Shown: positions 6,924 to 45,092 of the stretch, one piece after another
Position numbering within the stretch: position 1 is the stretch's first letter
Layout of the letters: each line of letters begins with the position of its first letter
Virus record (IMG/VR): IMGVR_UViG_3300020379_000976
Span: 1-50,307 of that record
Length of the DNA: 50,307 bases
Strand: one strand, 5' to 3'
Origin: a virus
Taxonomy: Duplodnaviria > Caudoviricetes
Position numbers and translations under genes: made by a program
Notes under the pieces: model-generated
What the model was told of the DNA's origin: nothing
Database searches by the model: none
Seen by the model: the letters and a program-made list of their open reading frames with translations, nothing else

Positions 6924-9163
6924 TGTATAATCAAACTTTATATAAGGTACACACCGAACATTTATTATCTAAATTAGTTAAAAATAATAATAGATATAAA
7001 AAATTCGAGTATGGTTATAACAAAGATTTAGATTGTGTTGTTATAAGTAAGGACGGTACAATAGGTGAGATATATGAAATACAAGGATTAAAAATTGCAC
7101 TTCCTTCAATACCTAAAAAAATTAACGGTCAAGAACTAAAAAAAGAAGAACAGGTATTTATTCAAACGCCTAAGCCTGCTACACTTAAAAAAATAAAAAG
7201 TATATATAGTTTTAAGTCATATAACGAGGATATAAAAGAAAAGTATTATGAATATATTAATAAAGAGTTTGATTTTCGTTCTGATGGTTACTGGTTCATG
7301 TGCAACGGTGAGCCATGTTACCTCACCGGCTCCCATTATATATACCTCAATTGGACAAAGATCGATGTGGGTTCACCCGATTTTAGACATGCAAACAGAT
7401 TATTTTTTTATTTCTGGGAGGCATGCAAGGCGGATTATAGGTGTTATGGAATGTGCTACCTCAAGAACAGACGGTCTGGTTTCTCCTTTATGGCGAGTTC
7501 GGAAGTTGTCAACGTGGCAACTGTTACCAGAGACGCAAGATTTGGGATACTTTCAAAGACTGGAGGAGACGCGAAGAAGATGTTCACGGATAAGGTTGTC
7601 CCAATTTCCACGAACTACCCGTTCTTTTTTAAACCAATACAGGATGGCATGGAGAGGCCAAAGACAGAACTATCGTACAAGGTACCATCGAGAAGGCTCA
7701 CAAGAAAGACAATACAATCAACCTCCGCGGGCACCGAAGAGAGTGATCAGGTGGGACTTGATACCACCATCGACTGGAAGAATACAGGTGACAATTCCTA
7801 CGACGGGGAGAAATTACAGATCCTCGTCCATGATGAATCGGGCAAGTGGGAGAAGCCGGACAACATTCTCAATAACTGGAGGGTCACAAAGACGTGTCTC
7901 CGTCTCGGTTCGAAAATAGTTGGTAAATGTATGATGGGGTCTACGTCTAACTCACTAGATAAAGGCGGCGGTAATTTTAAAAAAATTTATAATGACTCAG
8001 ATCTTACAAAGAAAAAACGAAATCGCAATGGGCAGACTGCTAGTGGACTATACGCTTTGTTCATACCTATGGAATGGAACTTCGAAGGATTCATTAACAA
8101 GTTTGGTTTTCCTGTCTTCGACACTCCGGAAACTCCGGTTAAAGGAATTGACGGGGAACTTATCTACAACGGAGTTATCGATCATTGGGAGAATGAAGCA
8201 GATGGGCTCAAAGATAATGCCGATGCTTTAAACGAATATTATAGACAGTTTCCTAGGACTGAAAAACATGCATTTAGAGATGAAACAAAAGAATCTATAT
8301 TTAATTTATCAAGAATATATGAACAGATAGATTTTAATGAAGAAATGGTTGCATCAGGATATGTAACAACAGGTTCTTTTCAATGGAAGAACGGTGTTAA
8401 AGATACACAAGTACAATTCTATCCTAATCCTCATGGAAGATTTAGAATATCTTGGATACTTCCAACGGATATGCAAAATAATATAGAAGTTAAAAATGGT
8501 ATTAAATATCCAGGCAATAAAGCTTTTGGTGCTTTTGGATGTGATAGTTATGATATAAGTGGAACAACAGATGGTGGTGGTTCGAATGGATCATTACACG
8601 GATTAACAAGTTTTTCCTTATCACCAGATGTCCCTAAATCACAATTCTTTTTAGAATATATTGCAAGGCCACAAACAGCTGAAATATTTTTTGAAGATGT
8701 ATTAATGGCAATAATATTTTATGGTATGCCAATACTTGCAGAGAATAATAAGCCAAGATTATTATATCATTTGAAAAGAAGAGGTTATAGAGGATTTTCT
8801 ATGAACCGTCCAGATAAAGCTAGAAATAAATTATCTGTAACAGAAAAAGAATTAGGTGGTATACCTAATACTTCAGAAGATATAAGGCAAGCTCATGCAT
8901 CCGCAATAGAATCTTACATAGAAGAAAATGTAGGTATAACAAATGAGGAGCACGGCAGAATGTATTTTCAAAGAACACTTGAAGATTGGTCTAAGTTTAA
9001 TATAAACAATAGAACAAAGTTTGATGCTTCAATAAGTAGTGGTTTAGCTATAATGGCTTGCCAAAGACATTTATATGCTCCAAGAGCAGAAAGACAAACA
9101 AGAAAGATAGATTTTGGATTTTCAAAATATAATAATTCAGGATTAAAAAGTAAAATATTATAA
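6923..9163 (+). CDS. terL: Terminase large subunit
   Basis: Walker A-like LKNRRSGFS, Walker B LVHDESGKW, coupling motif GST, nuclease GCDSYD and FDASISSG. Confidence 0.9.
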   Translation: MYNQTLYKVHTEHLLSKLVKNNNRYKKFEYGYNKDLDCVVISKDGTIGEIYEIQGLKIALPSIPKKINGQELKKEEQVFIQTPKPATLKKIKSIYSFKSYNEDIKEKYYEYINKEFDFRSDGYWFMCNGEPCYLTGSHYIYLNWTKIDVGSPDFRHANRLFFYFWEACKADYRCYGMCYLKNRRSGFSFMASSEVVNVATVTRDARFGILSKTGGDAKKMFTDKVVPISTNYPFFFKPIQDGMERPKTELSYKVPSRRLTRKTIQSTSAGTEESDQVGLDTTIDWKNTGDNSYDGEKLQILVHDESGKWEKPDNILNNWRVTKTCLRLGSKIVGKCMMGSTSNSLDKGGGNFKKIYNDSDLTKKKRNRNGQTASGLYALFIPMEWNFEGFINKFGFPVFDTPETPVKGIDGELIYNGVIDHWENEADGLKDNADALNEYYRQFPRTEKHAFRDETKESIFNLSRIYEQIDFNEEMVASGYVTTGSFQWKNGVKDTQVQFYPNPHGRFRISWILPTDMQNNIEVKNGIKYPGNKAFGAFGCDSYDISGTTDGGGSNGSLHGLTSFSLSPDVPKSQFFLEYIARPQTAEIFFEDVLMAIIFYGMPILAENNKPRLLYHLKRRGYRGFSMNRPDKARNKLSVTEKELGGIPNTSEDIRQAHASAIESYIEENVGITNEEHGRMYFQRTLEDWSKFNINNRTKFDASISSGLAIMACQRHLYAPRAERQTRKIDFGFSKYNNSGLKSKIL
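7248..7919 (+). CDS. Nested +1-frame ORF in terL: predicted lipoprotein with R/S-rich tail
   Basis: MNILIKSLIFVLMVTGS-C lipobox-like N-terminus, A-rich upstream context, 223 stop-free codons coinciding with G/C-ending TerL codons. Confidence 0.7.
   Translation: MNILIKSLIFVLMVTGSCATVSHVTSPAPIIYTSIGQRSMWVHPILDMQTDYFFISGRHARRIIGVMECATSRTDGLVSPLWRVRKLSTWQLLPETQDLGYFQRLEETRRRCSRIRLSQFPRTTRSFLNQYRMAWRGQRQNYRTRYHREGSQERQYNQPPRAPKRVIRWDLIPPSTGRIQVTIPTTGRNYRSSSMMNRASGRSRTTFSITGGSQRRVSVSVRK
7992..8231 (+). CDS. Second nested +1-frame ORF in terL (79 aa)
   Basis: G/C-ending TerL codons continue through the ORF and revert to A/T-ending just after its stop. Confidence 0.5.
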   Translation: MTQILQRKNEIAMGRLLVDYTLCSYLWNGTSKDSLTSLVFLSSTLRKLRLKELTGNLSTTELSIIGRMKQMGSKIMPML

Positions 9164-9165
9164 TA

Positions 9166-11526
9166 ATGGCAGAAGCTACAGGATATACAACTCAATTTCC
9201 CAGCCAATCGGTTGATGATGCTACAAAAAATAGCGAAAAATACGGATTGGAAGTGGCTAGAGGTATAAAAAATGAGTGGTTTAGAAAAAGCGCCGGAACA
9301 GGTAGATTTCTTCAAAACCAACGAGAATTCCATAGACTAAAATTATATGCTAGAGGTGAACAATCAACACAAAAATATAAAGATGAATTTTCTATAAATG
9401 GCGATTTATCTTATTTAAATCTTGACTGGAAACCAGTACCTATAATTCCAAAATTTGTTGATATAGTTGTAAATGGTATGCAAGATAGACTATTTACAAT
9501 TAAAACATTTGCACAAGATCCATCATCTACTAAAAAAAGAACTGATTTTGTAGAAATGATGCTAGAAGATATGAATACACAAGACTTTATTAAAGAAGTT
9601 GATTCAAAACTAGGATTAAATGTAGAAAATTTTTCTGAAATGCAAATACCTGAAAGTGATGAAGAATTAGAACTTCATATGCAAATAGGGTACAAACAAT
9701 CTATTGAACTTGCTCATGAACAAGCTATTGATAATATTTTTAAAAGAAATAGTTACTACGAACTTAAAAAACGTTTAGATTATGACCAAACTGTTTTGGG
9801 TATATCTTGTGCTAAGCACACTTTTAATAATACTGATGGTATTAAACTCGAATACGTAGATCCAGCTAATTTAGTATATTCATATACAGAAGATCCTAAT
9901 TTTCAAGATGTATATTATTTTGGCGAAATAAAACAAATAAAATCTAACGAACTTAAAAAACAATTTCCTGGTTTATCAGATGAAGAGTTTGAGGATTGTA
10001 TAAAAAGATCTGGTAAAACTAATCAATACGATTATACTAATAATGATTCAAATGATTCTTATGATTCTAATACATTAACAGTATTATATTTTAACTGGAA
10101 ATCCTGGGAACAAAGTGTTTTTAAAATAAAAGAAACATCTTCTGGTGCTAAAAAAGCAATTAAAAAAGATGATAAGTTTAATCCACCTAAAGATCAAAGA
10201 ACAAGATTTGAAAGAGTAGCACAAGCAAGAGAAGTTATATATGAAGGTGTTATGGTTTTAGGCGCTAATAAACTTTTAAAATGGCAGAAAGCTGAGAACA
10301 TGGTTAGGCCTGATTCAAATGTTAATACAGTCATGATGAACTATGTTGTTAGTGCACCTAGATTTTATAAAGGAAAAATTGAAAGCTTAGTTAGTAGAAT
10401 GGTTACATATGCTGACTTGATACAACTAACTCATTTAAAATTACAACAAGTAGTACAAAGAATGACACCATCTGGTGTATTTGTAGATGCAGATGGATTA
10501 TCTGAAATAGATTTAGGCAATGGTACAAATTATAATCCACAAGAAGCATTAAATTTATATTTTCAAACTGGATCTATTATAGGTCGCTCAATGACTGTAG
10601 ATGGAGATATGAACCCCGGTAAAGTTCCTATTCAAGAATTACCTGGTGGGGGAGGACAACAATCTACACTTTTAATTCAAACATATAATTATTATTTAAA
10701 TATGATAAGAGATGTTACCGGATTAAATGAAGCAAGAGATGGGTCAGATCCAGATCCTCACGCTTTAGTAGGGGTACAAAAACTAGCGGCTGCAAATTCT
10801 AATACAGCCACAAGACATATACTGCATAGCTCAATGTATATAACTAGCGAATTAGCAGAAGCAATATCTATAAGATTAAAAGATGTGCTTACTTATCATC
10901 CACAAAGAGATGTATTTGTTAAAAGTTTAGGTAGATTTACAGTGGGAGCATTAAAAGAATTAGAAAATGTGCATTTGCATGATTTTGGTGTATTTATTGA
11001 GTTAGACCCTGATGAAGAAGAAAAACAATTAGTTGAAAACAATATACAAATAGCTTTATCAAAAGATCAAATACATTTAGAAGACGTAATAGATATTAGA
11101 TCAATAAAAAATATAAAGTTAGCTAATCAATTATTAAAGTATAGAAGAGCTAGAAAAGCTGCTGCAGATCAAATGAAAGCAGAAAGAAATATTGCTGCTC
11201 AATCGCAAGCTAATGCACAAGCAGCACAAGCCGCTGAACTTGCAAAAGCTCAAGCTGAAAGTGTAAAAGTTGAATCAAGAATGAAGCTTCAGGAAGCACA
11301 GAAAAACTTTGATATACAAAAACTTGAAACAGAAGCTAGAACAAAAAAAGAGTTAATGCAATTTGAGTTTGATTTAAACATGAAATTAAAACAAATGGAG
11401 TTAGATTCAAAAGAAAAAATGGAACTTAGTAAACCTGTACGAAGTGCAAAACCTTCTAAGCCATTTGAATCTAAAGGTAACGATGTTTTAGGTGGAATTG
11501 ATCTTTCAAGATTTGAACCTAAATAA
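9166..11526 (+). CDS. Portal protein
   Basis: Follows TerL; 786 aa; W.PVPIIPKFVDIVVNG and IRDVTGLNEARDG motifs; coiled-coil C-terminal barrel. Confidence 0.85.
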   Translation: MAEATGYTTQFPSQSVDDATKNSEKYGLEVARGIKNEWFRKSAGTGRFLQNQREFHRLKLYARGEQSTQKYKDEFSINGDLSYLNLDWKPVPIIPKFVDIVVNGMQDRLFTIKTFAQDPSSTKKRTDFVEMMLEDMNTQDFIKEVDSKLGLNVENFSEMQIPESDEELELHMQIGYKQSIELAHEQAIDNIFKRNSYYELKKRLDYDQTVLGISCAKHTFNNTDGIKLEYVDPANLVYSYTEDPNFQDVYYFGEIKQIKSNELKKQFPGLSDEEFEDCIKRSGKTNQYDYTNNDSNDSYDSNTLTVLYFNWKSWEQSVFKIKETSSGAKKAIKKDDKFNPPKDQRTRFERVAQAREVIYEGVMVLGANKLLKWQKAENMVRPDSNVNTVMMNYVVSAPRFYKGKIESLVSRMVTYADLIQLTHLKLQQVVQRMTPSGVFVDADGLSEIDLGNGTNYNPQEALNLYFQTGSIIGRSMTVDGDMNPGKVPIQELPGGGGQQSTLLIQTYNYYLNMIRDVTGLNEARDGSDPDPHALVGVQKLAAANSNTATRHILHSSMYITSELAEAISIRLKDVLTYHPQRDVFVKSLGRFTVGALKELENVHLHDFGVFIELDPDEEEKQLVENNIQIALSKDQIHLEDVIDIRSIKNIKLANQLLKYRRARKAAADQMKAERNIAAQSQANAQAAQAAELAKAQAESVKVESRMKLQEAQKNFDIQKLETEARTKKELMQFEFDLNMKLKQMELDSKEKMELSKPVRSAKPSKPFESKGNDVLGGIDLSRFEPK

Positions 11527-11554
11527 ATTTTAAATTATTATATATTATTAAATT

Positions 11555-12832
11555 ATGGAAAAGTGGAAAGTAAAAGGAATCGTAACAGACGAACCAAAAT
11601 CTAAACAACAAACAGAACAAGCTGTTTTAGATAAAGCTGTAGAAAAAGGTGAAATTGAACCAGAAGCTGCAGGTAAAAAAGATAACGACGTTATAAAAGT
11701 AGATTTAGATAAATTAAAAAATAAAGAAAAAGATGCCGTTCAGAAGCAAAGCACAGATGAGGTACCTGTACGCGACGGATCCGAAACTAGCAAAGAAGTT
11801 CAAAAGGAAAACAAAGAAGAAGTTAAAGAATCTGCCGGAGAAAATAAACAAGAAGAAAACAATAAAAGTAACAAAGAAGAACAAAGGGAAGAAATAGATT
11901 CACCTATTGAACTTATACAAGAAGAAGAAAATAAACAGCCTGAAAAAAGTAATCAACCTAAAATTGATGAAAGAGCGGCTGAAGTAAATAAAAAATCTGA
12001 ACCAAAAGAACCTGAAATAAACTTACCAGAAAATGTTGATAAACTAGTAAAGTTTATGGATGAAACTGGAGGTTCAATTGAAGATTATGTAGCTCTTAAT
12101 AAAGATATATCTAGTTTAAAAGACGGAGAACTATTAAGAGAGTATTATACAAAATCTAAACCATGGGAACAATCTGAAATATCAGAATATATGGAAGATA
12201 ATTTTTCATATACTGAAGAGGATGACCCAAAAGAAATACGTGCTAAAAAGCGCGCATACAAAGAAGAAATACATAAAGCTCGACAGTTTTTTACTATTAA
12301 TAGGGATAAATATTATGCTGACATCAAGTTGAATAAGCAAAATGAAATACCTGAACAATATCAAAATGCTTTGAAGTTTTATGAAGATTCAAAAAGGAAC
12401 GAAGAAGTAAACAAAGAAATAACAAATAAATTTTTACAAAGAACAGAAAATGTTTTTAATAACGACTTTAAAGGATTTGATTTTCAAGTTGGAAATAATA
12501 AATATAGATATAAAGTTAATAACGTTACAGAAACAAGAAATGCTCAATCTAATCTTGCAAATTTTGTAAATCAATTTTTAAATGATAAAGGAGATTTAGA
12601 AAATGCAAGTGGTTATCATAAAGCTTTATTTACTGCAAGAAATGCAGATAAAATAGCTCAGCATTTTTATGAGCAGGGCCGTGCCGATGCTTTACAACAA
12701 AATGCAAAAGAAGCTAAAAATATAAATATGGAACCAAGAAAAGAAGGATTTATTCAAACCAAATCCGGACAAAAATTTAGAGTTGTTTCAGGTAATTCTA
12801 GTTCAAAACTTAGAGTAAACTTAAAACAATAA
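11555..12832 (+). CDS. Putative capsid scaffolding/assembly protein
   Basis: Acidic low-complexity N-half, between portal and MCP; HFYEQG.ADA motif. Confidence 0.65.
   Translation: MEKWKVKGIVTDEPKSKQQTEQAVLDKAVEKGEIEPEAAGKKDNDVIKVDLDKLKNKEKDAVQKQSTDEVPVRDGSETSKEVQKENKEEVKESAGENKQEENNKSNKEEQREEIDSPIELIQEEENKQPEKSNQPKIDERAAEVNKKSEPKEPEINLPENVDKLVKFMDETGGSIEDYVALNKDISSLKDGELLREYYTKSKPWEQSEISEYMEDNFSYTEEDDPKEIRAKKRAYKEEIHKARQFFTINRDKYYADIKLNKQNEIPEQYQNALKFYEDSKRNEEVNKEITNKFLQRTENVFNNDFKGFDFQVGNNKYRYKVNNVTETRNAQSNLANFVNQFLNDKGDLENASGYHKALFTARNADKIAQHFYEQGRADALQQNAKEAKNINMEPRKEGFIQTKSGQKFRVVSGNSSSKLRVNLKQ
11733..11897 (+). CDS. Nested +1-frame small basic protein (54 aa)
   Basis: Own translation MPFRSKAQMRYLYATDPKLAKKFKRKTKKKLKNLPEKINKKKTIKVTKKNKGKK; resembles small phage proteins of the MPFKS.AQ.RY.YA..P.LA...LPE type; local GC rise starts at the ATG. 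Confidence 0.75.
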   Translation: MPFRSKAQMRYLYATDPKLAKKFKRKTKKKLKNLPEKINKKKTIKVTKKNKGKK

Positions 12833-12845
12833 AAATTTATAAAAA

Positions 12846-14261
12846 ATGGGAAGTCTTTCACAAGGAATAGAACACTTAACACCTTCGCCTAGCAAAGGAC
12901 AACTATTCCAAGGTAATTATATTACCAATTTTGATTTTACAAACCAGTTCTTACCTGATGTTTATGAAAAGCAAGCTGAAATTTATGGAAACAGATCTAT
13001 TGGTGGTTTCTTAAAATTAGTATCTGCAGAGATGCCTTCAGCTTCTGATGAAATAAGATGGGTAGAACAAGGTAGATTACATATAGCTTATAACAATGTA
13101 GCTGTATCTGGAAACGTATTTACAGTAACTTTAGCAGCTAATCCTGATGGAACTGCTTATCCCGCTGCTGCTGCTTCTGCAATAAGAGTAGGACAAACAA
13201 TTATGGCCCAAGGGGTTAACAGTGGAGGAGCACTAAACGGTGCTGTATTAAGAGGTGTTGTAACTGTAGCTGGAGCTGCTGCTTCAGGCGATACATCAAC
13301 ATTTACAGCAGTATGTTTAGAAGCAGCTAACTGGGGTACTGTAGCATCTAATCCAAAAGCAAGAGTATTAGTATATGGTTCTGAATTTGCAAAAGGTACA
13401 GACGGAATGACTGGCTCAATTGACGCTAGTTATTCTTCTTATACTAATAAGCCAATGATACTAAAAGATAATTATCAAATCAATGGCTCTGATACTGCAC
13501 AGATAGGATGGATTGAAGTCACTTCTGAAAATGGAGCTTCTGGATATTTATGGTATTTACAATCTGAACACGAAACTCGTCAAAGATTTGAAGATTACTT
13601 AGAAATGTCTATGATAGAGTCTGTTAAAAGTACACAAGCTGCATCACCAGGAGGTGGTACAGAAGGTTTATTTGCTGCATTAACTGGCAGAGGAAATGTT
13701 TATACAGATCTTTCTGGAGATTTAGGCTCAAATATGAATGGTTTTGATACTATATTAAAGCAATTAGATAAAAATGGAGCTGTGGAAGAAAACATGCTGT
13801 ACATTGATAAAACATTATCTTTAGCTATTGATGATGCACTTGCCGCTAAGAACTCTTATGGTACTGGCGGTACTTCTTATGGTGTATTTAATAACAGCGA
13901 AGAAATGGCTTTAAATTTAGGATTCTCAGGATTTAGAAGAGGTGGATATGACTTCTATAAAACTGACTGGAAATATTTAAATGACTTTGGCACAAGAGGC
14001 CAGTTTAATGATGTTGAAGGAGTTTTAATTCCTGCTGGAACTTCTACAGTTTACGATCAAGAATTAGGTCAAAATATTAAAAGACCATTCTTGCACGTAA
14101 GATATAGAGCTTCTGAAACTGATGATAGAAAAATGAAAACTTGGATTACAGGTTCTGTAGGTGGTGCTTATACTACTACTACAGATGAAATGCGAGTTTC
14201 ATTCTTATCTGAAAGATGTTTAATAGTACAAGGAGCTAATAACTTCTTTCTATTAAAATAA
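12846..14261 (+). CDS. Major capsid protein
   Basis: Position, size, strong codon bias; QFLPDVYEK..E.YGNR, W.EQGRLH and FLSERCL.VQGANNF motifs. Confidence 0.85.
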   Translation: MGSLSQGIEHLTPSPSKGQLFQGNYITNFDFTNQFLPDVYEKQAEIYGNRSIGGFLKLVSAEMPSASDEIRWVEQGRLHIAYNNVAVSGNVFTVTLAANPDGTAYPAAAASAIRVGQTIMAQGVNSGGALNGAVLRGVVTVAGAAASGDTSTFTAVCLEAANWGTVASNPKARVLVYGSEFAKGTDGMTGSIDASYSSYTNKPMILKDNYQINGSDTAQIGWIEVTSENGASGYLWYLQSEHETRQRFEDYLEMSMIESVKSTQAASPGGGTEGLFAALTGRGNVYTDLSGDLGSNMNGFDTILKQLDKNGAVEENMLYIDKTLSLAIDDALAAKNSYGTGGTSYGVFNNSEEMALNLGFSGFRRGGYDFYKTDWKYLNDFGTRGQFNDVEGVLIPAGTSTVYDQELGQNIKRPFLHVRYRASETDDRKMKTWITGSVGGAYTTTTDEMRVSFLSERCLIVQGANNFFLLK

Positions 14262-14272
14262 TTATTTTAACG

Positions 14273-14312: not shown

Positions 14313-14331
14313 TTTTATTAAATTATATATT

Positions 14332-36507: not shown

Positions 36508-38250
36508 TTATCCATCGCAGCTTAAACAATTAGGATCCATAGCTGCTGCTGCTATATCTCCTCTCAATACAGACTCTGTCCTCATATAATATAAGGTCTT
36601 TATTCCATGTTTCCATGCGTCCATATGTACCGTATTAATCCACCTAGGTGTAGCTTCAGAAGGAAAAGCTAGATTAAGTGATACTGATTGATCAATATAA
36701 TCTTGTCTTATACCTGCTTGCCTAACTAATTCTAGTTGGTTTATTTCTTTAAATGTTTTAAATACGTTTTTGACTGGTTCTCCGTCTTCTTTATTAAGTC
36801 TTCCTCTTTCGTCATAATACCATTCGTTAAGTGCATCGAGTGTTTGAACAGATCCACCATCGGCAAGTATCTTATCCCATGTATCTTTGTTATCAATCCC
36901 AAGTTTCTTAAATATTTTTTTAAGTTCGTTATTTTTTCTAATAAATGTTCCTTTAGCAGATTGCTCTGTAAATATATTAGCAGCCCAAGGTTCAATACCG
37001 GCTGAAACATTACCTGATAGTTTTGAATTACTAACAGTTGGTGCAATAGATCTTAAATGTGTATTTCTAAATCCTGTACCAACACACCATAGTGGTTCTC
37101 CATATATTTCAGCAAGAGCTCTTGAAGCGCGTTCGGTTTCAATTTTAATTTTTGAAAATATCTCACGTGTTTTAAATTGTGCTAATAAACTTTCAAAAGC
37201 TATTCCTTTCTTTTGTAATAGACTGTGCCATCCTAAAACTCCTAATCCTAAAGCTCTACCCTTCTCTGCACTACGCACTGCATTTTCAAAGCCTTTCATA
37301 TTTTTTGCTCTTTGAATAAACTCTTCTAATACTCCATCAAGAAACCACGTTGCGTCATATACTAAGTTAGTATTTTTCCATTCATCATACTTATCTAAAT
37401 TAACTGAAGATAAACAACAAACAAAACTATGTGACTCATCTGTATGTAATACTATTTCACTACAAATGTTAGTCATATGAACTTTTAAACTGTTTTTCTT
37501 ATATGCTGTTGGATTAGCTTTGTTTGTATTTCCTTTAAATAAGATATATGGTTCTCCAGTTGCTTTACGCTTTTGTATAAGCTTTGACCACCTAAGTCTT
37601 GCTTCTTCATCTCCAAGTTCAAGCTTTCGCATAAACTTATCGCCAACGACAGCACACTGCTGCAGGTTAAGAGATTGTCTATTGACATCACCTTTAGGTT
37701 CTCTAATTTCCAACCATTCGAGGAAATCATCGTGTTCAATATTGATATTAACGCTTGCAGCTCCTCTTCTAACGGAACCCTGATTGGTCGCGAGTATAGT
37801 TGAGTCGTATATTTTGCAAAAAGGGACAACCCCATCTGAAGTTCCATTACCTGTAATTTTAGCGCCAGCGGGACGAATCATATTAACTCCGATACCCACA
37901 CCCCCGCCGTGTTTTGCAAGTAACATCATTTCTAAATTTTTATTACCTATATCTTGTATACTATCTGCTACATCAATTCCAAAACAGCTTATAGGTAAAC
38001 CTCTATCTGAACCTGTGTTAGATAATACGGGTGATGCTAAACATAGCCATCCTTTCCATATATAATCAAAAAATCTATCTGCAAGTTCTGGCTTATATAA
38101 ACGTTTAGCTACAGTTTTAGCAACACGCATATATGCATCACGAGGTGACTCACCATTAATTAAATATCCACCTGATATTGTTTTCTTATATATATCTGTA
38201 TCACCCCACGCAGGGTAATCTTTATTTTTTTTCCAATTGTTATTCCACAT
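36508..38250 (-). CDS. nrdA: Ribonucleotide reductase class Ia alpha subunit (no evident ATP cone)
   Basis: ISCF, GGGVG, NICSEI, GLGVLG, APTVSNS, KTLYY and C-terminal CLSC motifs. Confidence 0.95.
   Translation of the reverse strand: MWNNNWKKNKDYPAWGDTDIYKKTISGGYLINGESPRDAYMRVAKTVAKRLYKPELADRFFDYIWKGWLCLASPVLSNTGSDRGLPISCFGIDVADSIQDIGNKNLEMMLLAKHGGGVGIGVNMIRPAGAKITGNGTSDGVVPFCKIYDSTILATNQGSVRRGAASVNINIEHDDFLEWLEIREPKGDVNRQSLNLQQCAVVGDKFMRKLELGDEEARLRWSKLIQKRKATGEPYILFKGNTNKANPTAYKKNSLKVHMTNICSEIVLHTDESHSFVCCLSSVNLDKYDEWKNTNLVYDATWFLDGVLEEFIQRAKNMKGFENAVRSAEKGRALGLGVLGWHSLLQKKGIAFESLLAQFKTREIFSKIKIETERASRALAEIYGEPLWCVGTGFRNTHLRSIAPTVSNSKLSGNVSAGIEPWAANIFTEQSAKGTFIRKNNELKKIFKKLGIDNKDTWDKILADGGSVQTLDALNEWYYDERGRLNKEDGEPVKNVFKTFKEINQLELVRQAGIRQDYIDQSVSLNLAFPSEATPRWINTVHMDAWKHGIKTLYYMRTESVLRGDIAAAAMDPNCLSCDG
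37485..37847 (-). CDS. Nested +1-frame ORF in nrdA (120 aa, helical)
   Basis: Stop-free frame overlapping a GC-raised nrdA segment; amphipathic pattern. Confidence 0.45.
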   Translation of the reverse strand: MELQMGLSLFAKYTTQLYSRPIRVPLEEELQALISILNTMISSNGWKLENLKVMSIDNLLTCSSVLSLAISLCESLNLEMKKQDLGGQSLYKSVKQLENHISYLKEIQTKLIQQHIRKTV

Positions 38251-38596: not shown

Positions 38597-38838
38597 CTAT
38601 TGCATCTGTTAGTACGCCTATATATTATAGTTGTACTATTACTTGGATAAGTATATAATAAATTATAATTATAATTATATATAGGTTCTGTAACTATAAT
38701 AACTTCTCTTTGATAATCATTTAAATTATTTTGATAGTATAAATTATCAAACATATAATTATTATTATAATCCCATTGTGTAAATTGTGCATTGCTATAA
38801 AAACTTATAGCTAAAAATAATATTAAAATTTTTTTCAT
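38593..38838 (-). CDS. Small secreted Y/N-rich protein
   Basis: Start MKKILILFLAISFYSNA|Q at 38838: Sec signal peptide followed by Gln, typical of Bacteroidetes. Confidence 0.7.
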   Translation of the reverse strand: MKKILILFLAISFYSNAQFTQWDYNNNYMFDNLYYQNNLNDYQREVIIVTEPIYNYNYNLLYTYPSNSTTIIYRRTNRCNR

Positions 38839-38840
38839 AA

Positions 38841-39347
38841 TTAATTGTTTTTTAAAAATTTTTTTAAATGTATTTTTTCCCAATGCTTTCTATAATCCAT
38901 ACCTGTATAAAACTCTTCATTACACTGGCTACATTTAATTAATTTTTTACCAGATGTCTTCAAAATCTTCCCCTTCGTTAGCTTTCGAATAATCAGTCGG
39001 CCTAATAGAAAAGAAATCAGTATGAGTGTGCCCGCCGGTAAGATGGTAGAACCAGTCCAAACTGCTCGCTCCCACTTCGTCATATTCAAAGTACTTCCCG
39101 CTGTTTGAGTAACCGAGTTCAACAATTTTTTCGTTAAGACGTTTCCTGATAAATTGTTTAAGGTCATATGCTTTGAGGTTTTCAATATCCCCTTGCTCAA
39201 ACATTTTGTCAATATATCTTTCTTCTGCTTTAAGCATTGTTTTTGCCGCTTTAATAACGTGTTCATAACAACCATCTTGTAATCCTTTAATTTCTTTACA
39301 CATATGTCTAAATAACTGACATCCCATTTTAGAATGTAATGATTCAT
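38841..39347 (-). CDS. +1-frame ORF overlapping the nrdB 3' end: TM helix plus C2H2 zinc finger
   Basis: C-x2-C-x3-F-x5-Y-x2-H-x4-H at 38868-38933, beyond the nrdB stop, with no in-frame ATG between that stop and the finger; start uncertain (39347, 39167 or 39083). Confidence 0.75.
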   Translation of the reverse strand: MNHYILKWDVSYLDICVKKLKDYKMVVMNTLLKRQKQCLKQKKDILTKCLSKGILKTSKHMTLNNLSGNVLTKKLLNSVTQTAGSTLNMTKWERAVWTGSTILPAGTLILISFLLGRLIIRKLTKGKILKTSGKKLIKCSQCNEEFYTGMDYRKHWEKIHLKKFLKNN

Positions 39348-39915
39348 CTCTTACACTCCACTTCATCTGTTGGCCAATGCCTTTGAGCAAATTACGCAAC
39401 TGAAAGCTATATAACACAGCAAAAGCGGAATAGAGACTAACGCCTTCTGCAAATGCAGAAAATACAGCGAGAGACCTGCCAATCCCAATAGGGTCGCTAC
39501 CAGAGTAACTAACAAGATTATCGAAGCGCTGCGCCGTGGCGGGCTCGTGTAAGAATGCTTCAAAGTTTTCGAGTCCAAGTGTTTCATTTAAATAAGAATA
39601 AGCAACAGCGTGTATTGTTTCTTGCGAACCAAACATCATTGCCATTTGTTGTATTTCGTGTTTAGGAAACCAGCCTACAACCTTTTGTGTCCAATAATCT
39701 GATACCGCACATTCTGTTTGTGCAAATCCTAAAAGAATATTACCAACTAAATTTTTTTCTGATTTAGTTAATTTTTCATTCCAGTCCTTAACGTCACTTG
39801 ACATTGGTATTTCAGTATGTAACCAAAAAGCTTGAGCTTGTTTAAGCCAACCTTCTGTATAATATTCAGGGTATTCAAAAGGTTTATAAGGTATTCTTTC
39901 GTCAAATAATCCCAT
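38947..39915 (-). CDS. nrdB: Ribonucleotide reductase class Ia beta subunit
   Basis: W...E..M..D, QETIHAVAYS, EGVSLYSAF, RDESLH and DFF motifs. Confidence 0.95.
   Translation of the reverse strand: MGLFDERIPYKPFEYPEYYTEGWLKQAQAFWLHTEIPMSSDVKDWNEKLTKSEKNLVGNILLGFAQTECAVSDYWTQKVVGWFPKHEIQQMAMMFGSQETIHAVAYSYLNETLGLENFEAFLHEPATAQRFDNLVSYSGSDPIGIGRSLAVFSAFAEGVSLYSAFAVLYSFQLRNLLKGIGQQMKWSVRDESLHSKMGCQLFRHMCKEIKGLQDGCYEHVIKAAKTMLKAEERYIDKMFEQGDIENLKAYDLKQFIRKRLNEKIVELGYSNSGKYFEYDEVGASSLDWFYHLTGGHTHTDFFSIRPTDYSKANEGEDFEDIW
39363..39587 (-). CDS. Nested +1-frame two-TM membrane protein in nrdB (74 aa)
   Basis: Basic N-terminus and two hydrophobic helices; extent matches a GC-raised patch. Confidence 0.6.
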   Translation of the reverse strand: MKHLDSKTLKHSYTSPPRRSASIILLVTLVATLLGLAGLSLYFLHLQKALVSIPLLLCYIAFSCVICSKALANR

Positions 39916-40115
39916 TACTTTTTATCTTCTTTTTCTTTTGTGTTTTCTTTTTTAAGTTCTTCAAGAGCTTTATCATAACCAGGTAATTTTTTAGTAACCA
40001 TCATTGTGCCCACAGCTAAATCTTTTAGGTTATGTAATTCTTGTACTATTCTATTCATAGAATTGCCTAGCACTTCTATCTTATTGCGCATTTCTATTAG
40101 TTTATTCTCCTTCAT
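39915..40115 (-). CDS. Hypothetical protein
   Basis: Coupled to neighbouring genes. Confidence 0.65.
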   Translation of the reverse strand: MKENKLIEMRNKIEVLGNSMNRIVQELHNLKDLAVGTMMVTKKLPGYDKALEELKKENTKEKEDKK

Positions 40116-40317
40116 TAAAATATTTATTTAATGTATTAATTCTATCGTCGGCATCAACTAACATTTGTAATGCTTGTTCTGCATTCTTATAATAATCATC
40201 TGTTGAATGATCACCAATACCTGCAGGTTTATTACTTAATAAATCTAAGCTAAGTAATGCTTTTGTTTTATCTGCTTCAGCAGATGTTAATAACATTTTA
40301 TATAATTCCTTGTACAT
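40102..40317 (-). CDS. Conserved hypothetical phage protein
   Basis: P.GIGDHS motif in a helical hairpin. Confidence 0.7.
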   Translation of the reverse strand: MYKELYKMLLTSAEADKTKALLSLDLLSNKPAGIGDHSTDDYYKNAEQALQMLVDADDRINTLNKYFNEGE

Positions 40318-40513
40318 CTTTGCTAAGTATTATAGGACTTGCATCCTTATTGTTTTTAACTTCAATATGAGTTTCTTTAATAGTAACTATAGGATCAATA
40401 GGTTCCATTATTCTTCTAATAACTTTGCCGTGTTGATCTCTAATTATTTTCTTTCTTGAAAACAATCGTTTATAGTTTTTTAAAACGTATTCTTTTATTT
40501 TTTCTTCATTCAT
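40298..40513 (-). CDS. Hypothetical protein
   Basis: Operon packing. Confidence 0.6.
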   Translation of the reverse strand: MNEEKIKEYVLKNYKRLFSRKKIIRDQHGKVIRRIMEPIDPIVTIKETHIEVKNNKDASPIILSKDVQGII

Positions 40514-40649
40514 AATGCATGGTTAAACATAGTTCTACAAAAGGTAAATATAATACATGCTCCACAAATGTCTCCTCAGGATAGCTTCGTATTCCTACAA
40601 CAACTCCCGGATATAAACCTACGCTAACTTCCCACCCTGCTATTTTCAT
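40506..40649 (-). CDS. Hypothetical protein (47 aa)
   Basis: Own translation MKIAGWEVSVGLYPGVVVGIRSYPEETFVEHVLYLPFVELCLTMHYE; fills the gap. Confidence 0.65.
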   Translation of the reverse strand: MKIAGWEVSVGLYPGVVVGIRSYPEETFVEHVLYLPFVELCLTMHYE

Positions 40650-40740
40650 TTAAATAATAGTTTAACATTTTCATATGAAATTTTATTCTTTCAACATAGT
40701 GATCTTGAAGTGAAGTTATTTCTGTGTCTTTAAATTCCAT
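40624..40740 (-). CDS. Hypothetical protein (38 aa)
   Basis: Own translation MEFKDTEITSLQDHYVERIKFHMKMLNYYLNENSRVGS; overlaps both neighbours slightly. Confidence 0.5.
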   Translation of the reverse strand: MEFKDTEITSLQDHYVERIKFHMKMLNYYLNENSRVGS

Positions 40741-40837
40741 ATCGTTCATGTATATTTAATATATCCTTATACTTTATAGGATTTCTTTTAATTAATTTTT
40801 TAATTTCTTTATCTATTTTACGTCTTCTATACATCAT
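40730..40837 (-). CDS. Small basic hypothetical protein
   Basis: Part of ORF 40730-40948; likely start MMYRRRK overlapping the upstream stop (ATGA). Confidence 0.45.
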   Translation of the reverse strand: MMYRRRKIDKEIKKLIKRNPIKYKDILNIHERYGI

Positions 40838-41295
40838 TTCTGCCTCTTTCTTTTTCTTGATTCTTTGATCAAATTTATCGTCAGATCTACTTCTTTCTGA
40901 TTTTGAGGCTTGTAAAGTATCTTTCCAATATTGTTTTTCGTAAGCCATAATTTAAATAGTTTCCACCTTAAAGGAAAAGATTCATTTGGTCTGCCTTTGC
41001 ATTCTATAATATAATCTTTACCAATAAAATCAGGTGTATATTTTATACCTAATATTTTTTTAATTCCTCTGTTTATATATTCGCCTTTACCATTAGCTTG
41101 TTTTTCATAACTTGTATTAGGGAATTGAAATGAAGTTATTAATTCAAACGTTTCATTTTCATATCCTTCAAACAATTTATTTTTTTTTAAAGCTATATAA
41201 GTGTATCTTTCAAGACCTGAAGCAAAGTTAATACCATCATATGATATTTTTTTAGCTTGTACAGGACCTCTTTTTTTACTCCTACGTTTTACCAT
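40834..41295 (-). CDS. PD-(D/E)XK endonuclease, T7 endonuclease I/resolvase-like
   Basis: F.SGLE, YE, YTPDF...IIECKG motifs. Confidence 0.8.
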   Translation of the reverse strand: MVKRRSKKRGPVQAKKISYDGINFASGLERYTYIALKKNKLFEGYENETFELITSFQFPNTSYEKQANGKGEYINRGIKKILGIKYTPDFIGKDYIIECKGRPNESFPLRWKLFKLWLTKNNIGKILYKPQNQKEVDLTINLIKESRKRKRQK

Positions 41296-41564
41296 GTAAC
41301 ATCCCAGTTTTTATCTGTAGTGTCTGATGTCCAACTTGATTCAGGATATTTACTTAGCTTTTTTTCTTCTTCAATTAATACAGCTCTAATTTTTTCAATA
41401 TAGTTAGCAGCATCCATAAGCTCTTCTTGTAAATGATTAAGCCAAGTGTCAAGTGATTGATCATCTTTATCTAAACCAACACCATACTTTTTATAACCTG
41501 CTTCAGCACGTTTTTGAATCTTTTCAATTACGCGATTAATTATTTTGTCGTTTACTTTACTCAT
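41289..41564 (-). CDS. Small all-alpha NTP-pyrophosphatase-like phage protein
   Basis: R...G.KKYG..L......WL.HLQEELMDA..Y motif. Confidence 0.55.
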   Translation of the reverse strand: MSKVNDKIINRVIEKIQKRAEAGYKKYGVGLDKDDQSLDTWLNHLQEELMDAANYIEKIRAVLIEEEKKLSKYPESSWTSDTTDKNWDVTW

Positions 41565-42318
41565 CTTTTACAAATGTTCCGTTAACCATTTTACCTGTTC
41601 TTTTAGATATTACATTAAATGATTCATCAATGCAATCTTCAATTTTAAACCCTTCAAGTTCTGAAAGATTAGCAAGGACTATTACCATATCACCAATAGC
41701 ATCTTTTATCTCAGGTTTATTTTGTTTTAATAATGCTTGTGCAAGTTCTCCTGCTTCTTCCATTAGTTTAACATACTGAGTTTTACTATCACCTTTCTGA
41801 TAAAGATTACGATCTTTAGCCCAGTTTCTTATTTTATTAAATGCTGATGTACCGTTAGATTTAAATGCTTTAGTAAAGGCTTTATTATAAATATAACACG
41901 TACCAGGCCCAAATTGGCTTGCATGTACATTAACTAATATCCAATCAATATAATCTTGATTATTTAATTCAAATACACCTTCAGATAATTCTAAAGTAAT
42001 GTCTTTTAAAAATTCAGCATTAATATCACTAGGCGATATTTTAAATGTTGTTGTTGCTTGTGATGAGCTATGTTTATTCATTTTTTTACGAAATAAATCT
42101 TTATATAATTTAATATCTGTTTTGTATTTAAGTTCTTTTTGTAAATTTCTTTCAGCTTCTGAAGCTTCTACTATATCATCTGTTTCATATAATATATCGT
42201 ATTCACCGGGTTTATATCCTTGTTCTTCTTCAACACGTTTCTTAATATTAGTTGTACAACCAATCTTAATACCGGGGATATGGTATATTTTATATTTACC
42301 TTTCTTTAGTTCTATCAT
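41557..42318 (-). CDS. GIY-YIG-like N-terminal domain fused to MazG-like pyrophosphohydrolase
   Basis: YKIYHIPG.KIGCT.N...R N-terminus; KLMEEAGELA...DAIGD C-terminus. Confidence 0.75.
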   Translation of the reverse strand: MIELKKGKYKIYHIPGIKIGCTTNIKKRVEEEQGYKPGEYDILYETDDIVEASEAERNLQKELKYKTDIKLYKDLFRKKMNKHSSSQATTTFKISPSDINAEFLKDITLELSEGVFELNNQDYIDWILVNVHASQFGPGTCYIYNKAFTKAFKSNGTSAFNKIRNWAKDRNLYQKGDSKTQYVKLMEEAGELAQALLKQNKPEIKDAIGDMVIVLANLSELEGFKIEDCIDESFNVISKRTGKMVNGTFVKDE

Positions 42319-43130
42319 GTATTTAATTTAGCTTTAATTGGTGGATGTGAATTATAATTTTTTAATTCAATCATATCTAACTCTGGTAATATTACTTCTT
42401 CGTTAACAATACTAATTCCGCAAGAAGAATCAACCCTAGGTAATTCCATAAAATCATTATTAAGTTGCTGCTTAGCTTGTTCAATATGGTTGCTATACAA
42501 ATGACAATCACCAAGACAACCGATAAGTTCACCTTTAACATATTCAGATCCTTCAGCTAACAACTGAAGTAATAAACCATACATTGCAATGTCATAAGGT
42601 AACCCAAGAAAAACATCAACTGATCGTTGTTGCCACATAAGATTAAGTTTGCCATCATTTATATATACTTGAAAGCCATAGTGGCAAGGCGGCAACACCA
42701 TATCAGCCAGATCATTGGGATTCCATAAGCTTGCCATAATGCGCCGCGAGCTTGGGTATCTTTTAATTTTGACGAGTATTCTTTTAAGCTGATCAACGCC
42801 ATTGAAGTCCCTAAGCTGCTTCCCATAAACAGGACCAAGCGTACCGTCAGATCTACCTGATCTTTCATAATCAGGATTCCAGTAATTAACGCCATTTGAC
42901 TGCAAGTAATGCATATCAGTACGACCTTGAAGAATCCATAATAATTCCGTAACTGCATGTTTAAAATATATTTTTTTAGTTGTTAATAGTGGGAAGCCAA
43001 GTGACATATCATGCTTTATCATTCTACCAAATACAGATTTGGTGCCTGTGCCTGTTCTATCTTCTTTATCTTTACCACTATATAATACACCAGCTAATAA
43101 GCTTCTGTATTCATCTTGTATGTTTATCAT
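42315..43130 (-). CDS. thyA: Thymidylate synthase
   Basis: DRTGTGT, FPLLTTKK, LGPVYG, LPPCH, QRSVD..LGLP and GDCHLY motifs; likely start 43130. Confidence 0.95.
   Translation of the reverse strand: MINIQDEYRSLLAGVLYSGKDKEDRTGTGTKSVFGRMIKHDMSLGFPLLTTKKIYFKHAVTELLWILQGRTDMHYLQSNGVNYWNPDYERSGRSDGTLGPVYGKQLRDFNGVDQLKRILVKIKRYPSSRRIMASLWNPNDLADMVLPPCHYGFQVYINDGKLNLMWQQRSVDVFLGLPYDIAMYGLLLQLLAEGSEYVKGELIGCLGDCHLYSNHIEQAKQQLNNDFMELPRVDSSCGISIVNEEVILPELDMIELKNYNSHPPIKAKLNT
42659..42958 (-). CDS. Nested +1-frame hydrophobic ORF in thyA (99 aa)
   Basis: Stop-free frame across a GC-raised thyA core; 2-3 hydrophobic segments. Confidence 0.5.
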   Translation of the reverse strand: MQLRNYYGFFKVVLICITCSQMALITGILIMKDQVDLTVRLVLFMGSSLGTSMALISLKEYSSKLKDTQARGALWQAYGIPMIWLIWCCRLATMAFKYI

Positions 43131-43398
43131 AATAATATTTACACATTTTATAATATTCTGACCATATGCTATGTTTATCATAAACACTTGGTGAAAAGTT
43201 TATAGTCTCACCTTTTTTATATGGCCCAAAAGCAATTGCTATTTTCCATTTACCGGGCTCTTGACATATACCATAAGGTGATATTCTTATATTGTTATCA
43301 ATACAATATTTTTGCCACGTTTCTTCTTCTAAACTAGTTGTGTAAAATGGCATTTTATATGCATCTTTTTTACCTTTACCAGTTAATCCGCTTCCCAT
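43111..43398 (-). CDS. Hypothetical protein
   Basis: Operon packing. Confidence 0.65.
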   Translation of the reverse strand: MGSGLTGKGKKDAYKMPFYTTSLEEETWQKYCIDNNIRISPYGICQEPGKWKIAIAFGPYKKGETINFSPSVYDKHSIWSEYYKMCKYYYDKHTR

Positions 43399-45092
43399 GG
43401 CATCTTATTATTTATTTGTTGTACTATTGGTATATAATTACCACTTATTTTATCCCAAGTAAAATGTGCTTCAGCTTGATTCTCACCTAAGTTTTGAAAC
43501 TTTACTTTAAGAACTTTTACTTTTACAGTTTGCTTTTCATAATCTCTATGTACTAGCAGCCCGTGATAAGAAGCATCATACCATTCACCACCACCTTTAA
43601 TATTATACATATTAGGTTCATCAATAGTACCATCTTCTTTCTTATACATTTTAGTAGGATGAGCTACAACAATAACAAGCACATCGTGTTTCTTAGCAAA
43701 AGCTTCAACTCTTGTTAAGTATTCCATAGTAGCATCTGTAATACTCATATTACTAGCACCATTCATCTTAACTTTATTATACGGATCTATTACTAAACAC
43801 TTAATACCTTTACGCTTTACAAGCTCTGCACCTTTTTCTAATACAGAATCTAAATCATATCTTTCATTTTCTATAAAGAAAAAGTTATTATTAACTACAT
43901 CAGTTACTTCATTCCATTTAGCAGAACCAATATCTGATTCTCTTGGCATCCATCCACCTATCTTACGAATAAGTTTATGTCCATGCAAAAATGTTGGTTT
44001 ATTTTCCGGAGAAGCAAATGCTGTTTTCCAGCCGTACTTTAAATAATATCCTATAATCATTCTATCTACAAAATCAGATTTACCTGAACTTGGCACACCT
44101 GTTACTGTAATAAACTGTCCTGTATAAGTTGAAAATATATCATCAAAAGGCTCTAACCCGATTTGATAACCGGGTTTAAAACCTTCCTGAATAAACTCTT
44201 TTAATTCATTACTTACATCTGATAATGTTAAAACATTTTCAAGAGGTACGGGGCTTGCATTAGCAACGAGGCTAGCAAGCAAGTTGTTCCCATTGTGAAT
44301 AAGAAATTCATTAGCGTCTTTGTGATTGCCGAGGTCGATCGTATAACACGCTTCCGCTCCGAGTCTTCTAATAAGTTCTTGTTTAAGATTTTCTCCTGCC
44401 TCATCTTGATCAACTGCGAGAATGATTTTTTCTTTTGATTCAAAATAATCAATGCAGTTGTCCAAGTAATCAAGGTTAGTGTTATTAATTGTAGCTCCGT
44501 TTGGGACGCTAACCACTGAATCAATCCCAGCTTCAATAAAAGATAAAGCGTCAATCTCTCCTTCCACAATAACCACATATCTATGGCTAAGAGTAGCATC
44601 AATATTATAAAATATTTTTTCTGCTCCCTTAACAAGTTTAAAATTCTTTCTTCCATCTCTATACTTTATGTTAATTAGTTCATTGTTAATAAAGTAATTA
44701 AATTGGATTGTGTTCTCTTTTTTTCCTGTCTGTGGCATATATTCCAATCCTTCTGATACTTTCATTTTATTTAAAGTATCTTCTGATATACCACGTTTTT
44801 TAAACCATTGAATAACTTTATTACTTAGTTTAGTATTTGTAATAGGTTCCGGTTTTACATATTCTTTATCAGGATTTTTTCTTTTAAAGGTATGTAACTG
44901 AAATGTATTATTACAATTATGACAAGTACCAAGACCACGTTTCCAGTCATAAGATGCACATTTCTTTTTCTGGTTAGCAGGTTTCCTGTCAGCAGAGCAA
45001 AGAGGACAAACGCCCTCTTGCTCACCAACTTTAAGATTATATTGATTAAATATATCTATATCGAAACCATTAATCTCGATGTCATTTATCAT
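43383..45092 (-). CDS. T7 gp4-like primase-helicase
   Basis: CPLC/CHNC Zn finger, TOPRIM EGEIDALS and DQD, Walker A GVPSSGKS, IDPYN; likely start 45092. Confidence 0.92.
   Translation of the reverse strand: MINDIEINGFDIDIFNQYNLKVGEQEGVCPLCSADRKPANQKKKCASYDWKRGLGTCHNCNNTFQLHTFKRKNPDKEYVKPEPITNTKLSNKVIQWFKKRGISEDTLNKMKVSEGLEYMPQTGKKENTIQFNYFINNELINIKYRDGRKNFKLVKGAEKIFYNIDATLSHRYVVIVEGEIDALSFIEAGIDSVVSVPNGATINNTNLDYLDNCIDYFESKEKIILAVDQDEAGENLKQELIRRLGAEACYTIDLGNHKDANEFLIHNGNNLLASLVANASPVPLENVLTLSDVSNELKEFIQEGFKPGYQIGLEPFDDIFSTYTGQFITVTGVPSSGKSDFVDRMIIGYYLKYGWKTAFASPENKPTFLHGHKLIRKIGGWMPRESDIGSAKWNEVTDVVNNNFFFIENERYDLDSVLEKGAELVKRKGIKCLVIDPYNKVKMNGASNMSITDATMEYLTRVEAFAKKHDVLVIVVAHPTKMYKKEDGTIDEPNMYNIKGGGEWYDASYHGLLVHRDYEKQTVKVKVLKVKFQNLGENQAEAHFTWDKISGNYIPIVQQINNKMPWEAD
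44228..44656 (-). CDS. Nested +1-frame multi-TM-like ORF in the primase domain (142 aa)
   Basis: Stop-free frame overlapping the GC-raised patch at about 44240-44570. Confidence 0.5.
   Translation of the reverse strand: MEERILNLLREQKKYFIILMLLLAIDMWLLWKERLTLYLLLKLGLIQWLASQTELQLITLTLITWTTALIILNQKKKSFSQLIKMRQEKILNKNLLEDSERKRVIRSTSAITKTLMNFLFTMGTTCLLASLLMQAPYLLKMF

Follow-up and report, generated by a model that had tools for sequence, protein, structure and literature searches.

Genes nested out of frame within other genes are already known in tailed phages from a few cases. In phage lambda, Rz1 is nested out of frame in Rz, and unimolecular spanins combine an N-terminal lipobox with a C-terminal transmembrane (TM) helix. 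The kind of feature considered here has precedent above all in phage T7, which has annotated same-strand genes, all in the +1 frame, in terL (gene 19, with 19.2 and 19.3) and in the primase-helicase gene (gene 4, with 4.1 and 4.2; NC_001604 coordinates), and embedded spanins provide further cases. The classic instance of overprinting, a de novo protein read from an alternative frame, is described as phiX174 E inside D (PMC8227390). Here we analyzed a stretch of 50,307 nucleotides (nt; the window), the whole linear virus record IMGVR_UViG_3300020379_000976 of IMG/VR, for a second layer of genes: eight open reading frames (ORFs) nested in terL (terL-a and terL-b), a Glu/Lys-rich scaffold-like gene (the MPF peptide), nrdA (nrdA-a), nrdB (nrdB-a and nrdB-b), thyA (thyA-a) and the primase-helicase gene (prim-a). 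The frames, their codon footprint in the enclosing genes and their conservation among relatives were all observed, and the sequence comparisons make it probable that the eight are real genes translated from their own internal AUGs into small accessory proteins.

All eight ORFs of the original prediction were present on the strand of the enclosing gene at offset +1 (Table 1). Seven lie wholly within an intact gene, while nrdB-b overshoots the nrdB stop by 106 nt; together they occupy ~920 codons of their enclosing genes, including 40% of terL and 64% of nrdB. G+C content at third codon positions (GC3), 0.16 genome-wide, was raised over every span as predicted (8/8, p<0.01; inside vs. rest of the gene, 0.53 vs. 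0.19 for terL-a, 0.39 vs. 0.28 for terL-b, 0.28 vs. 0.12 in the scaffold-like gene, 0.29 vs. 0.18 in nrdA, 0.42 vs. 0.28 for nrdB-a, 0.33 vs. 0.29 for nrdB-b, 0.38 vs. 0.19 in thyA and 0.29 vs. 0.22 in the primase gene). When 36 genes were scanned for ATG-started alternative-frame ORFs of at least 20 amino acids (aa) with GC3 enrichment at p<0.01, 10 rows were returned: the eight ORFs, a 23-aa +2 ORF within terL-a and an ordinary terminal overlap. The GC-rich patches match the ORF borders in terL and the scaffold-like gene but less neatly in the other four genes. The terL tract (7289-8210) begins 14 codons into terL-a and runs to about the terL-b stop, corresponding to both ORFs minus the hydrophobic N-terminus of terL-a, and the scaffold tract begins at the nested ATG (11735); the best segment in thyA, primase and nrdB covers only a sub-part of the ORF, and that in nrdA begins ~80 nt upstream.

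We then compared the longest +1 run of each gene with 1000 draws under two nulls, genome codon usage and a within-gene shuffle. The predicted excess of length held at P≤0.001 under both nulls for five ORFs (terL-a, 227 codons, P 0/0; nrdA-a, 130, 0/0; nrdB-b, 134, 0/0; prim-a, 145, 0/0; thyA-a, 107, 0/0.001) but was weaker for nrdB-a (74 codons, 0/0.060) and terL-b (90 codons, 0.042/0.121), partly because these two are compared with their gene's longest run. In a shuffle confined to the spans, which keeps local GC3 and in which the spans were picked after the fact, the probability of finding no stop was 0.0002 for terL-a, 0.0006 for primase, 0.0012 for nrdB-b, 0.0034 for nrdA, 0.009 for thyA, 0.033 for terL-b, 0.068 for nrdB-a and 0.46 for the scaffold ORF. 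Raised GC3 alone is therefore insufficient to explain the open frames, since this shuffle still predicts 1.8-4.9 stops in each of the seven enzyme-nested ORFs. Long antisense runs in the genes of the window fell mostly inside shuffle expectation.

To follow the frames through relatives, 80 loci were fetched each for terL, nrdB and primase; for nrdB and terL, IMG/VR was estimated to contain ~1,800-1,900 such stretches. Homologues below 55% identity or 85% coverage and duplicates were dropped before counting, and per-ORF counts include the window's own sequence. Relatives that had played no part in defining the spans carried far fewer +1 stops than expected, as the original prediction required. 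The nrdA-a core was open in 50/66 (44 of the 47 relatives at 80-90% identity were stop-free, with 0.32 stops observed vs. 7.4 expected), that of terL-b in 56/69 (16/19 stop-free at 72-80% identity), nrdB-a in 70/78, nrdB-b in 74/78 and thyA-a in 19/22 (relatives at 58-71% identity; 13/16 stop-free at 55-66%). The terL-a core was open in 36/69 distinct terL sequences, among them a clade of no more than 62-65% identity, most of the 66-72% group having many stops (mean 10.9 across the full span vs. 14.5 expected), and prim-a in 7/31, nearer relatives only. Near-blank primase stop maps, including those of L275 and L276, are extraction artefacts and were left out of the counts. Prim-a itself is intact in L275, L276 and L277, and the first two, the closest relatives, also keep nrdB-a, nrdB-b (to the end of nrdB) and thyA-a. 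The claim of conserved starts and stops stood for nrdA-a (46 sequences start at host codon 135 and 50/50 stop at 255 or 259), thyA-a (start at codon 75 in 16) and prim-a (start at codon 177 in 7/7), but not for nrdB-a, terL-a and nrdB-b, the last of which has a variable start and, in 62 sequences, a stop in the region of the host stop. The terL-b ATG lies at host codons 355-361 in 56/56.

Selection on the second protein was assessed in disjoint pairs of extant carrier sequences, using host synonymous and first-position changes. The predicted reduction in synonymous variation was seen for terL-b (0.109 vs. 0.226), nrdA-a (0.210 vs. 0.344), nrdB-a (0.201 vs. 0.338) and nrdB-b (0.252 vs. 0.322), but not for terL-a, thyA-a and prim-a. 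In the pooled data, first-position changes that are nonsynonymous in the host and also alter the +1 residue were depleted (30:134 inside vs. 41:67 outside, p=4e-4), as they were in terL-b (p=0.012) and nrdB-b (p=0.0095) separately. Of the two terL ORFs, terL-b appears the better constrained; together with the frames kept open in relatives, the pooled result favours a second coding layer under selection. Across 109 loci we counted, at P<1e-4, 159 +1 runs vs. 18 +2 runs. Significant +1 runs occurred in nrdA (62/77), terL (29/51), nrdB (39/117), thyA (13/45), primase (20/115) and MazG (14/112) genes, in 1/430 other genes, and in none of the portal (40), capsid (28), exonuclease (99), Erf (82), resolvase (102), ligase (37) and scaffold (37) genes; since the loci were chosen by these genes, the per-family figures are not a genome-wide rate. 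In 29 genes of the cultured phage elemoB there was no significant +1 run. The layer is thus recurrent in certain genes, though not 'systematic' in the sense originally proposed: it is gene-specific rather than genome-wide, and some relatives also have a +2 ORF in nrdA.

The products do not form one envelope proteome. The proposal that they are mostly envelope-targeted finds no support: 5/8 of the window's ORFs contain TM-like segments, no higher a share than among background +1 windows (47/74), which bears out the accompanying caveat that TM character alone proves nothing. Three products, terL-b, nrdA-a and the MPF peptide, are soluble, and TM-like segments are rare among variants of the first two (1/58 and 2/49). 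terL-a combines a hydrophobic N-terminus (40/41 variants) bearing a lipoprotein-like Cys18 with an Arg/Ser/Thr-rich basic body (net charge +27), and is predicted to be disordered (mean predicted local distance difference test score (pLDDT) 35). Its lipobox, put forward as an independent signature, is plausible, but the Cys is produced by Met-Cys codons of terL; it occurs in 26/36 carriers and 2/33 non-carriers, largely in one clade. Over terL codons 201-275 the +1 product is more hydrophilic in carriers than in non-carriers (hydropathy -1.10 vs. 0.04). As its synonymous drop is absent, terL-a looks to be selected for an open frame and hydrophilic composition rather than for exact sequence. An atlas comparison gave at best 0.83 with low recognition, a lead only.

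The scaffold-nested MPF peptide (net charge +21) is the weakest of the eight on length but has the best homology evidence. Its standing as an independent signature, an 'MPFRS-type protein' in the original prediction, proved real: it matches PHROG 1375 (E 5.1e-5; 7/11 aligned members match, best E 8e-7). Among 44 scaffold homologues the peptide was found in 25, at 38-93% identity; six others have a different basic +1 peptide and 13 have neither. These six (L050, L053, L068, L069, L071 and L073) carry at the MPF site an unrelated basic +1 peptide of ~40 aa. One locus, L033, holds a decayed copy with a lost start and an internal stop. Among the best 80 viral loci of the family, nesting in the +1 frame accounted for 59, of which 56 lie in scaffold homologues, two in genes 1,700 or more codons long and one where a terL gene starts. 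Three further copies face a long antisense frame and 18 were classed as free; two of the rows counted as free are a broken scaffold gene (L222) and the N-terminal part of a longer protein (L210). Matches include 68 Flavobacterium phage records, free-standing unannotated copies in cyanophages S-CBS2 and P-RSP2, and +1 copies inside giant structural genes of elemoB (Elemovirus gp20) and of MW202828. A word-index search found only two near-identical proteins, tblastn with the peptide of the window gave no match in annotated phages, and the atlas gave at best 0.94 to unnamed clusters and 0.86 to DUF3008 (37% of members), again a lead only. The host-frame motif overlapping MPF is found again in every one of these unrelated hosts, and free copies already hint at it in their -1 frame; from this we infer that the MPF gene is the older frame and was captured, a better reading than overprinting.

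We consider it tentative that the nested products serve as lineage-specific helpers of host interaction and assembly. The likeliest role for MPF is as a basic DNA-binding packaging or core peptide, a role favoured because free MPF genes with annotated neighbours adjoin terminase, portal, capsid or tail-fibre genes, and for terL-a as a late, membrane-anchored protein in lysis or exclusion. An unlikely but not negligible alternative is that late nested products replace unrecognized spanins, terL-a acting as an outer-membrane lipoprotein and/or MPF as a disruptin like phiKT gp28. A holin-like gene and an M15 endolysin gene lie 1.4 kb upstream of terL-a with its lipobox-like Cys, no spanin family was matched among 48 window proteins scanned, and MPF, cationic and 54 aa long, resembles gp28, given as a 56-aa cationic peptide (10.1101/515445). 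Yet none of 41 terL-a variants has the second TM-like segment of a unimolecular spanin, the ORF is absent from half of relatives, no scanned neighbour of free MPF copies matched a lysis family, weak MPF-like matches (E 0.02) occur in Streptomyces phages, whose hosts lack an outer membrane, and the genome is only an estimated 78% complete. As an Rz1-like embedded o-spanin, terL-a does not fit by location, its enclosing gene being a terminase and not an i-spanin gene.

Several results weigh against reading all eight frames as genes. The scaffold ORF (59 codons) is of chance length in the shuffle test (P 0.635/0.643). Synonymous differences are not reduced over terL-a (0.213 vs. 0.204) or thyA-a (0.186 vs. 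0.181, 7 pairs), and their drop over prim-a is not significant (0.318 vs. 0.364, p=0.16, 3 pairs); nrdA genes of non-carriers also show a weaker synonymous reduction (0.273 vs. 0.342, p=0.009), and host-synonymous first-position changes altering the +1 residue are commoner inside (17/52) than outside (1/58). Both starts and stops wander in terL-a, nrdB-a and nrdB-b, and the terL genes of the outgroups elemoB (cultured) and MW202828 lack the terL ORFs. On a start-context score, six nested starts rank within the highest 10% of background +1 ATGs, with nrdA-a and nrdB-a outside it, and the context is permissive rather than proof because non-carriers score alike at the same sites. Contig pieces with 0-5 differences from the record occur in a marine RNA library, and four RNA-library runs compared with 4900-12900 yielded contigs, a kind of data that carries no information on frame, strand or level. 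The seven enzyme-nested products gave zero matches to Pfam and PHROGs, and the nrdA-a model, a set of helices (pLDDT 70), had zero matches in PDB and BFVD at E≤0.001, so any function for these ORFs rests on composition and position.

Weighing these points, we regard translation as very likely for MPF and, by a little less, for nrdA-a, highly probable for terL-a, terL-b and thyA-a, quite likely for prim-a, probable for nrdB-b and a shade less so for nrdB-a. It is improbable that the frames are untranslated by-products of recombined GC-richer tracts, the host protein sequence or conserved RNA signals. The chance length of the scaffold ORF, the recombination seen around the terL-a segment with no synonymous drop, and the partial constraint in non-carrier nrdA would fit such an origin. 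However, the avoidance of stops persists when local GC3 is kept, ~11 stops fall over terL-a in non-carriers whose host proteins are similar, the +2 frames are unprotected, and MPF has free-standing homologues; for RNA signals, Rfam found no match in the nested spans, and structure was rejected as the cause of terL-b conservation because 0/10 predicted pairs covary. Programmed frameshifting from the enclosing gene into fusion or truncation products, with the nested start codons unused, is likewise improbable: it would suit the variable starts of nrdB-a, nrdB-b and terL-a and the poor start contexts of nrdA-a and nrdB-a, but the ATG is held in nrdA-a (48/50 carriers vs. 139/280 comparable sites within the ORF) and within a few codons in terL-b, free-standing MPF copies begin at their own Met, and the terL-a N-terminus is signal-like.

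We favour, with good though not full confidence, translation by internal initiation on the mRNA of the enclosing gene. Bacteroidetes mRNAs are described as lacking Shine-Dalgarno sequences, with initiation tuned by structure and upstream A's (PMC6847099, PMC13000453), and gene starts in this clade are A-rich with no G-rich motif. Because ribosomes of the probable Flavobacteriia host would ignore Shine-Dalgarno sequences, an A-rich AUG context in an AT-rich gene could suffice. By genetic-code reasoning, many Asn/Asp/Tyr/His-G junctions in AT-rich genes would create a +1 ATG, and silent changes at Leu/Ile/Val codons could remove most of the +1 stops, so that new frames would be cheap to open. 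Two origins seem probable: the seven enzyme-core ORFs, which by Pfam and PHROGs have no relatives outside the overlaps and which spread less widely than their host genes, as expected of de novo overprinting, would have arisen in place, whereas MPF, which lacks this pattern, would be an older gene, free-standing as a rule, that was taken into a tolerant Glu/Lys-rich stretch, the host motif being its -1 shadow. We further think it somewhat likely that homologous recombination exchanges the passenger-carrying segments among relatives, each segment travelling as an allele of the essential gene. A tree of the alignment columns lying outside the ORFs requires at least four changes in terL-a presence, and sliding identity between the terL genes of L054 and L046 is 95-97% upstream of terL-a, 60-81% over it and 86-93% beyond it, the frame being open in L054 only. 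On balance, and by a narrow margin of belief, we picture a clade with a second, exchangeable gene layer in which conserved enzymes (terL, nrdA, nrdB, thyA, primase and MazG) may act as nurseries whose proteins are gained, lost and swapped as alleles, and in which at least three unrelated host genes may have taken up MPF, within tolerant stretches, as a dual-coding cassette.

The C2H2 finger, originally advanced as a signature of overprinting, did not hold up as such: being located past the nrdB stop, it is not overprinted, and in relatives it is a gene of its own, with its own ATG in another frame in 14/15 junction rows (duplicates included). It is fused to nrdB-b only in L268 and the window, which has also lost the separate ATG; in L275 and L276 the nrdB-b ORF matches only up to the nrdB end. 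The fusion hints that nrdB-b may be read in this phage, but it could also stem from a slip in an A-run. In six other nrdB homologues (L094, L098, L108, L116, L134 and L142) the +1 frame does not end with nrdB but goes on into a Cys-rich, lipoprotein-like domain, the signal of which begins within the final nrdB codons.

Further frames were seen in the same genes. The nrdA-a product, with 78 database matches, mostly of 116-124 aa and some fused to ribonucleotide reductase (RNR) domains (P0003-P0080), has already been annotated by gene callers at 120 aa in some long contigs. A second nrdA run absent from the original prediction, nrdA-b, is long (P 0/0.001), yet its GC3 is not raised, it is fully open only in the window and L081, L089 and L094 each have one stop, so its status as a gene is doubtful. 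Other nrdA homologues (L082, L095, L097, L118, L140 and others) contain an 80-aa Cys-rich +2 ORF at codons ~290-370 with a fixed ATG at 290; a significant +2 run occurs in 18/77 nrdA genes, and the window lacks this ORF. A different +1 ORF of ~150 aa at codons ~300-440 is open in 13/66 (L112, L129, L130, L144, L153 and others). thyA-b is the 3' remnant of an ORF of ~85 aa found in seven relatives (core open in 8/22), with the same short form in L275 and L276. Primase homologues including L099, L113, L151, L153, L093 and L159 have a different +1 stretch open at codons ~300-410, and the window has a shorter, non-significant run of 66 codons at 44855-45055 (-). ORFs of ~72 aa lie in the +1 frame over the 3' part of MazG in L141, L154, L301, L303, L305 and L313, with none seen in the window. 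Stop-free +1 runs also occur in the ligase gene (49012-49230, -; 72 codons, P 0/0.011, no early ATG, partly kept in L276 only) and a GroES-like gene (6303-6500, +; 65 codons, P 0.012/0.031, kept only in 92-96% relatives).

The record has 31.6% GC and ends in a partial tRNA (50254-50307, -) that Rfam finds and ARAGORN misses. The scaffold-like gene is so called by position only, a family scan (Pfam, PHROGs) having returned zero matches for it. The nearest annotated terL is that of MW202828 (61%), with those of Elemovirus, Cellulophaga, Tenacibaculum and Maribacter phages all below 60%, so the host is probably a member of the Flavobacteriia.

Table 1. Nested frames, enclosing genes and gene order in the window.
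Feature	Position	Strand	Description
terL-a	7248..7919	+	nested +1 ORF, 223 aa
terL-b	7992..8231	+	nested +1 ORF, 79 aa, soluble
MPF peptide	11733..11897	+	nested +1 ORF, 54 aa; phrog_1375
nrdA-a	37485..37847	-	nested +1 ORF, 120 aa, soluble, predicted all-helical
nrdB-a	39363..39587	-	nested +1 ORF, 74 aa, hydrophobic
nrdB-b	38841..39347	-	+1 ORF over nrdB 3' part
thyA-a	42659..42958	-	nested +1 ORF, 99 aa, hydrophobic
prim-a	44228..44656	-	nested +1 ORF, 142 aa, hydrophobic
nrdA-b	36741..37010	-	extra +1 run, 103 stop-free codons, 89 aa from ATG
thyA-b	42392..42541	-	extra +1 ORF, 49 aa
C2H2-type mini-domain	38841..38946	-	outside nrdB, fused to nrdB-b
terL	6923..9163	+	terminase large subunit; phrog_6681, E 1.6e-160
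Glu/Lys-rich gene	11555..12832	+	between portal and capsid genes; scaffold-like by synteny
nrdA	36508..38250	-	PF02867, phrog_84
nrdB	38947..39915	-	PF00268
thyA	42315..43181	-	PF00303
primase-helicase	43383..45185	-	phrog_239; true start probably downstream of 45185
Gene order		+	holin-like gene, M15 endolysin, terL, portal, Glu/Lys-rich gene, virion genes
Other genes		-	nrdA, nrdB, MazG, thyA, primase-helicase, exonuclease, Erf, ligase

If the reading of these frames as genes is true, phage accessory gene content is undercounted where genomes look best annotated, and synonymous sites of the marker genes terL, nrdA and nrdB are not neutral in these phages. The clade is widespread, and its carriers, non-carriers, recombinant and decayed copy make the birth, capture and loss of overlapping genes directly studiable; since the MPF cassette is present in a cultured Elemovirus with a known host, one case is testable now.

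Compared with known systems, the closest likeness is to T7, in which +1 ORFs lie inside the same two kinds of essential gene; the likeness is one of position and frame, and the terL families of the two phages differ. The T7 ORFs (40-112 aa) are annotated as hypothetical, and a knockout screen ranks 4.2 low in essentiality, with 19.2 and 19.3 unmentioned in the main text (10.1101/2024.10.10.617714). Unlike T7, this phage extends the layer to nrdA, nrdB, thyA and the scaffold-like gene, and presence varies between lineages. The embedded o-spanin gene 18.7 of T7, at +1 within 18.5 by coordinates, shares with terL-a its out-of-frame nesting, and the N-terminus of terL-a is plausibly lipoprotein-like; unlike o-spanins, terL-a is long, Arg-rich and predicted to be disordered, sits in a terminase gene and has no identified partner. 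In contrast to phiX174, the setting is a tailed double-stranded DNA phage of more than 50 kb with many host genes, one ORF being apparently captured. The small basic proteins of PHROG 1375 match MPF in sequence and are, when free-standing, often located in head and packaging modules, whereas the peptide of the window lies entirely within a structural gene, at +1, and lacks an annotation; with disruptin gp28, size and charge fit and gene context does not. The nearest cultured relatives, Elemovirus phages of Flavobacterium sp. BAL314, share 45% identity in terL, the same late gene order and MPF at +1 in gp20; unlike in the window, the terL and primase genes of elemoB have no significant +1 run, and no nrdA, nrdB or thyA is annotated in the portion of the Elemovirus record covered. 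A literature search, whose coverage excluded subscription journals, found no description of such a layer in Flavobacteriia phages. What is new here is the density of the nested frames, their spread to nucleotide-metabolism genes, their pattern of gain, loss and exchange, and the captured cassette.

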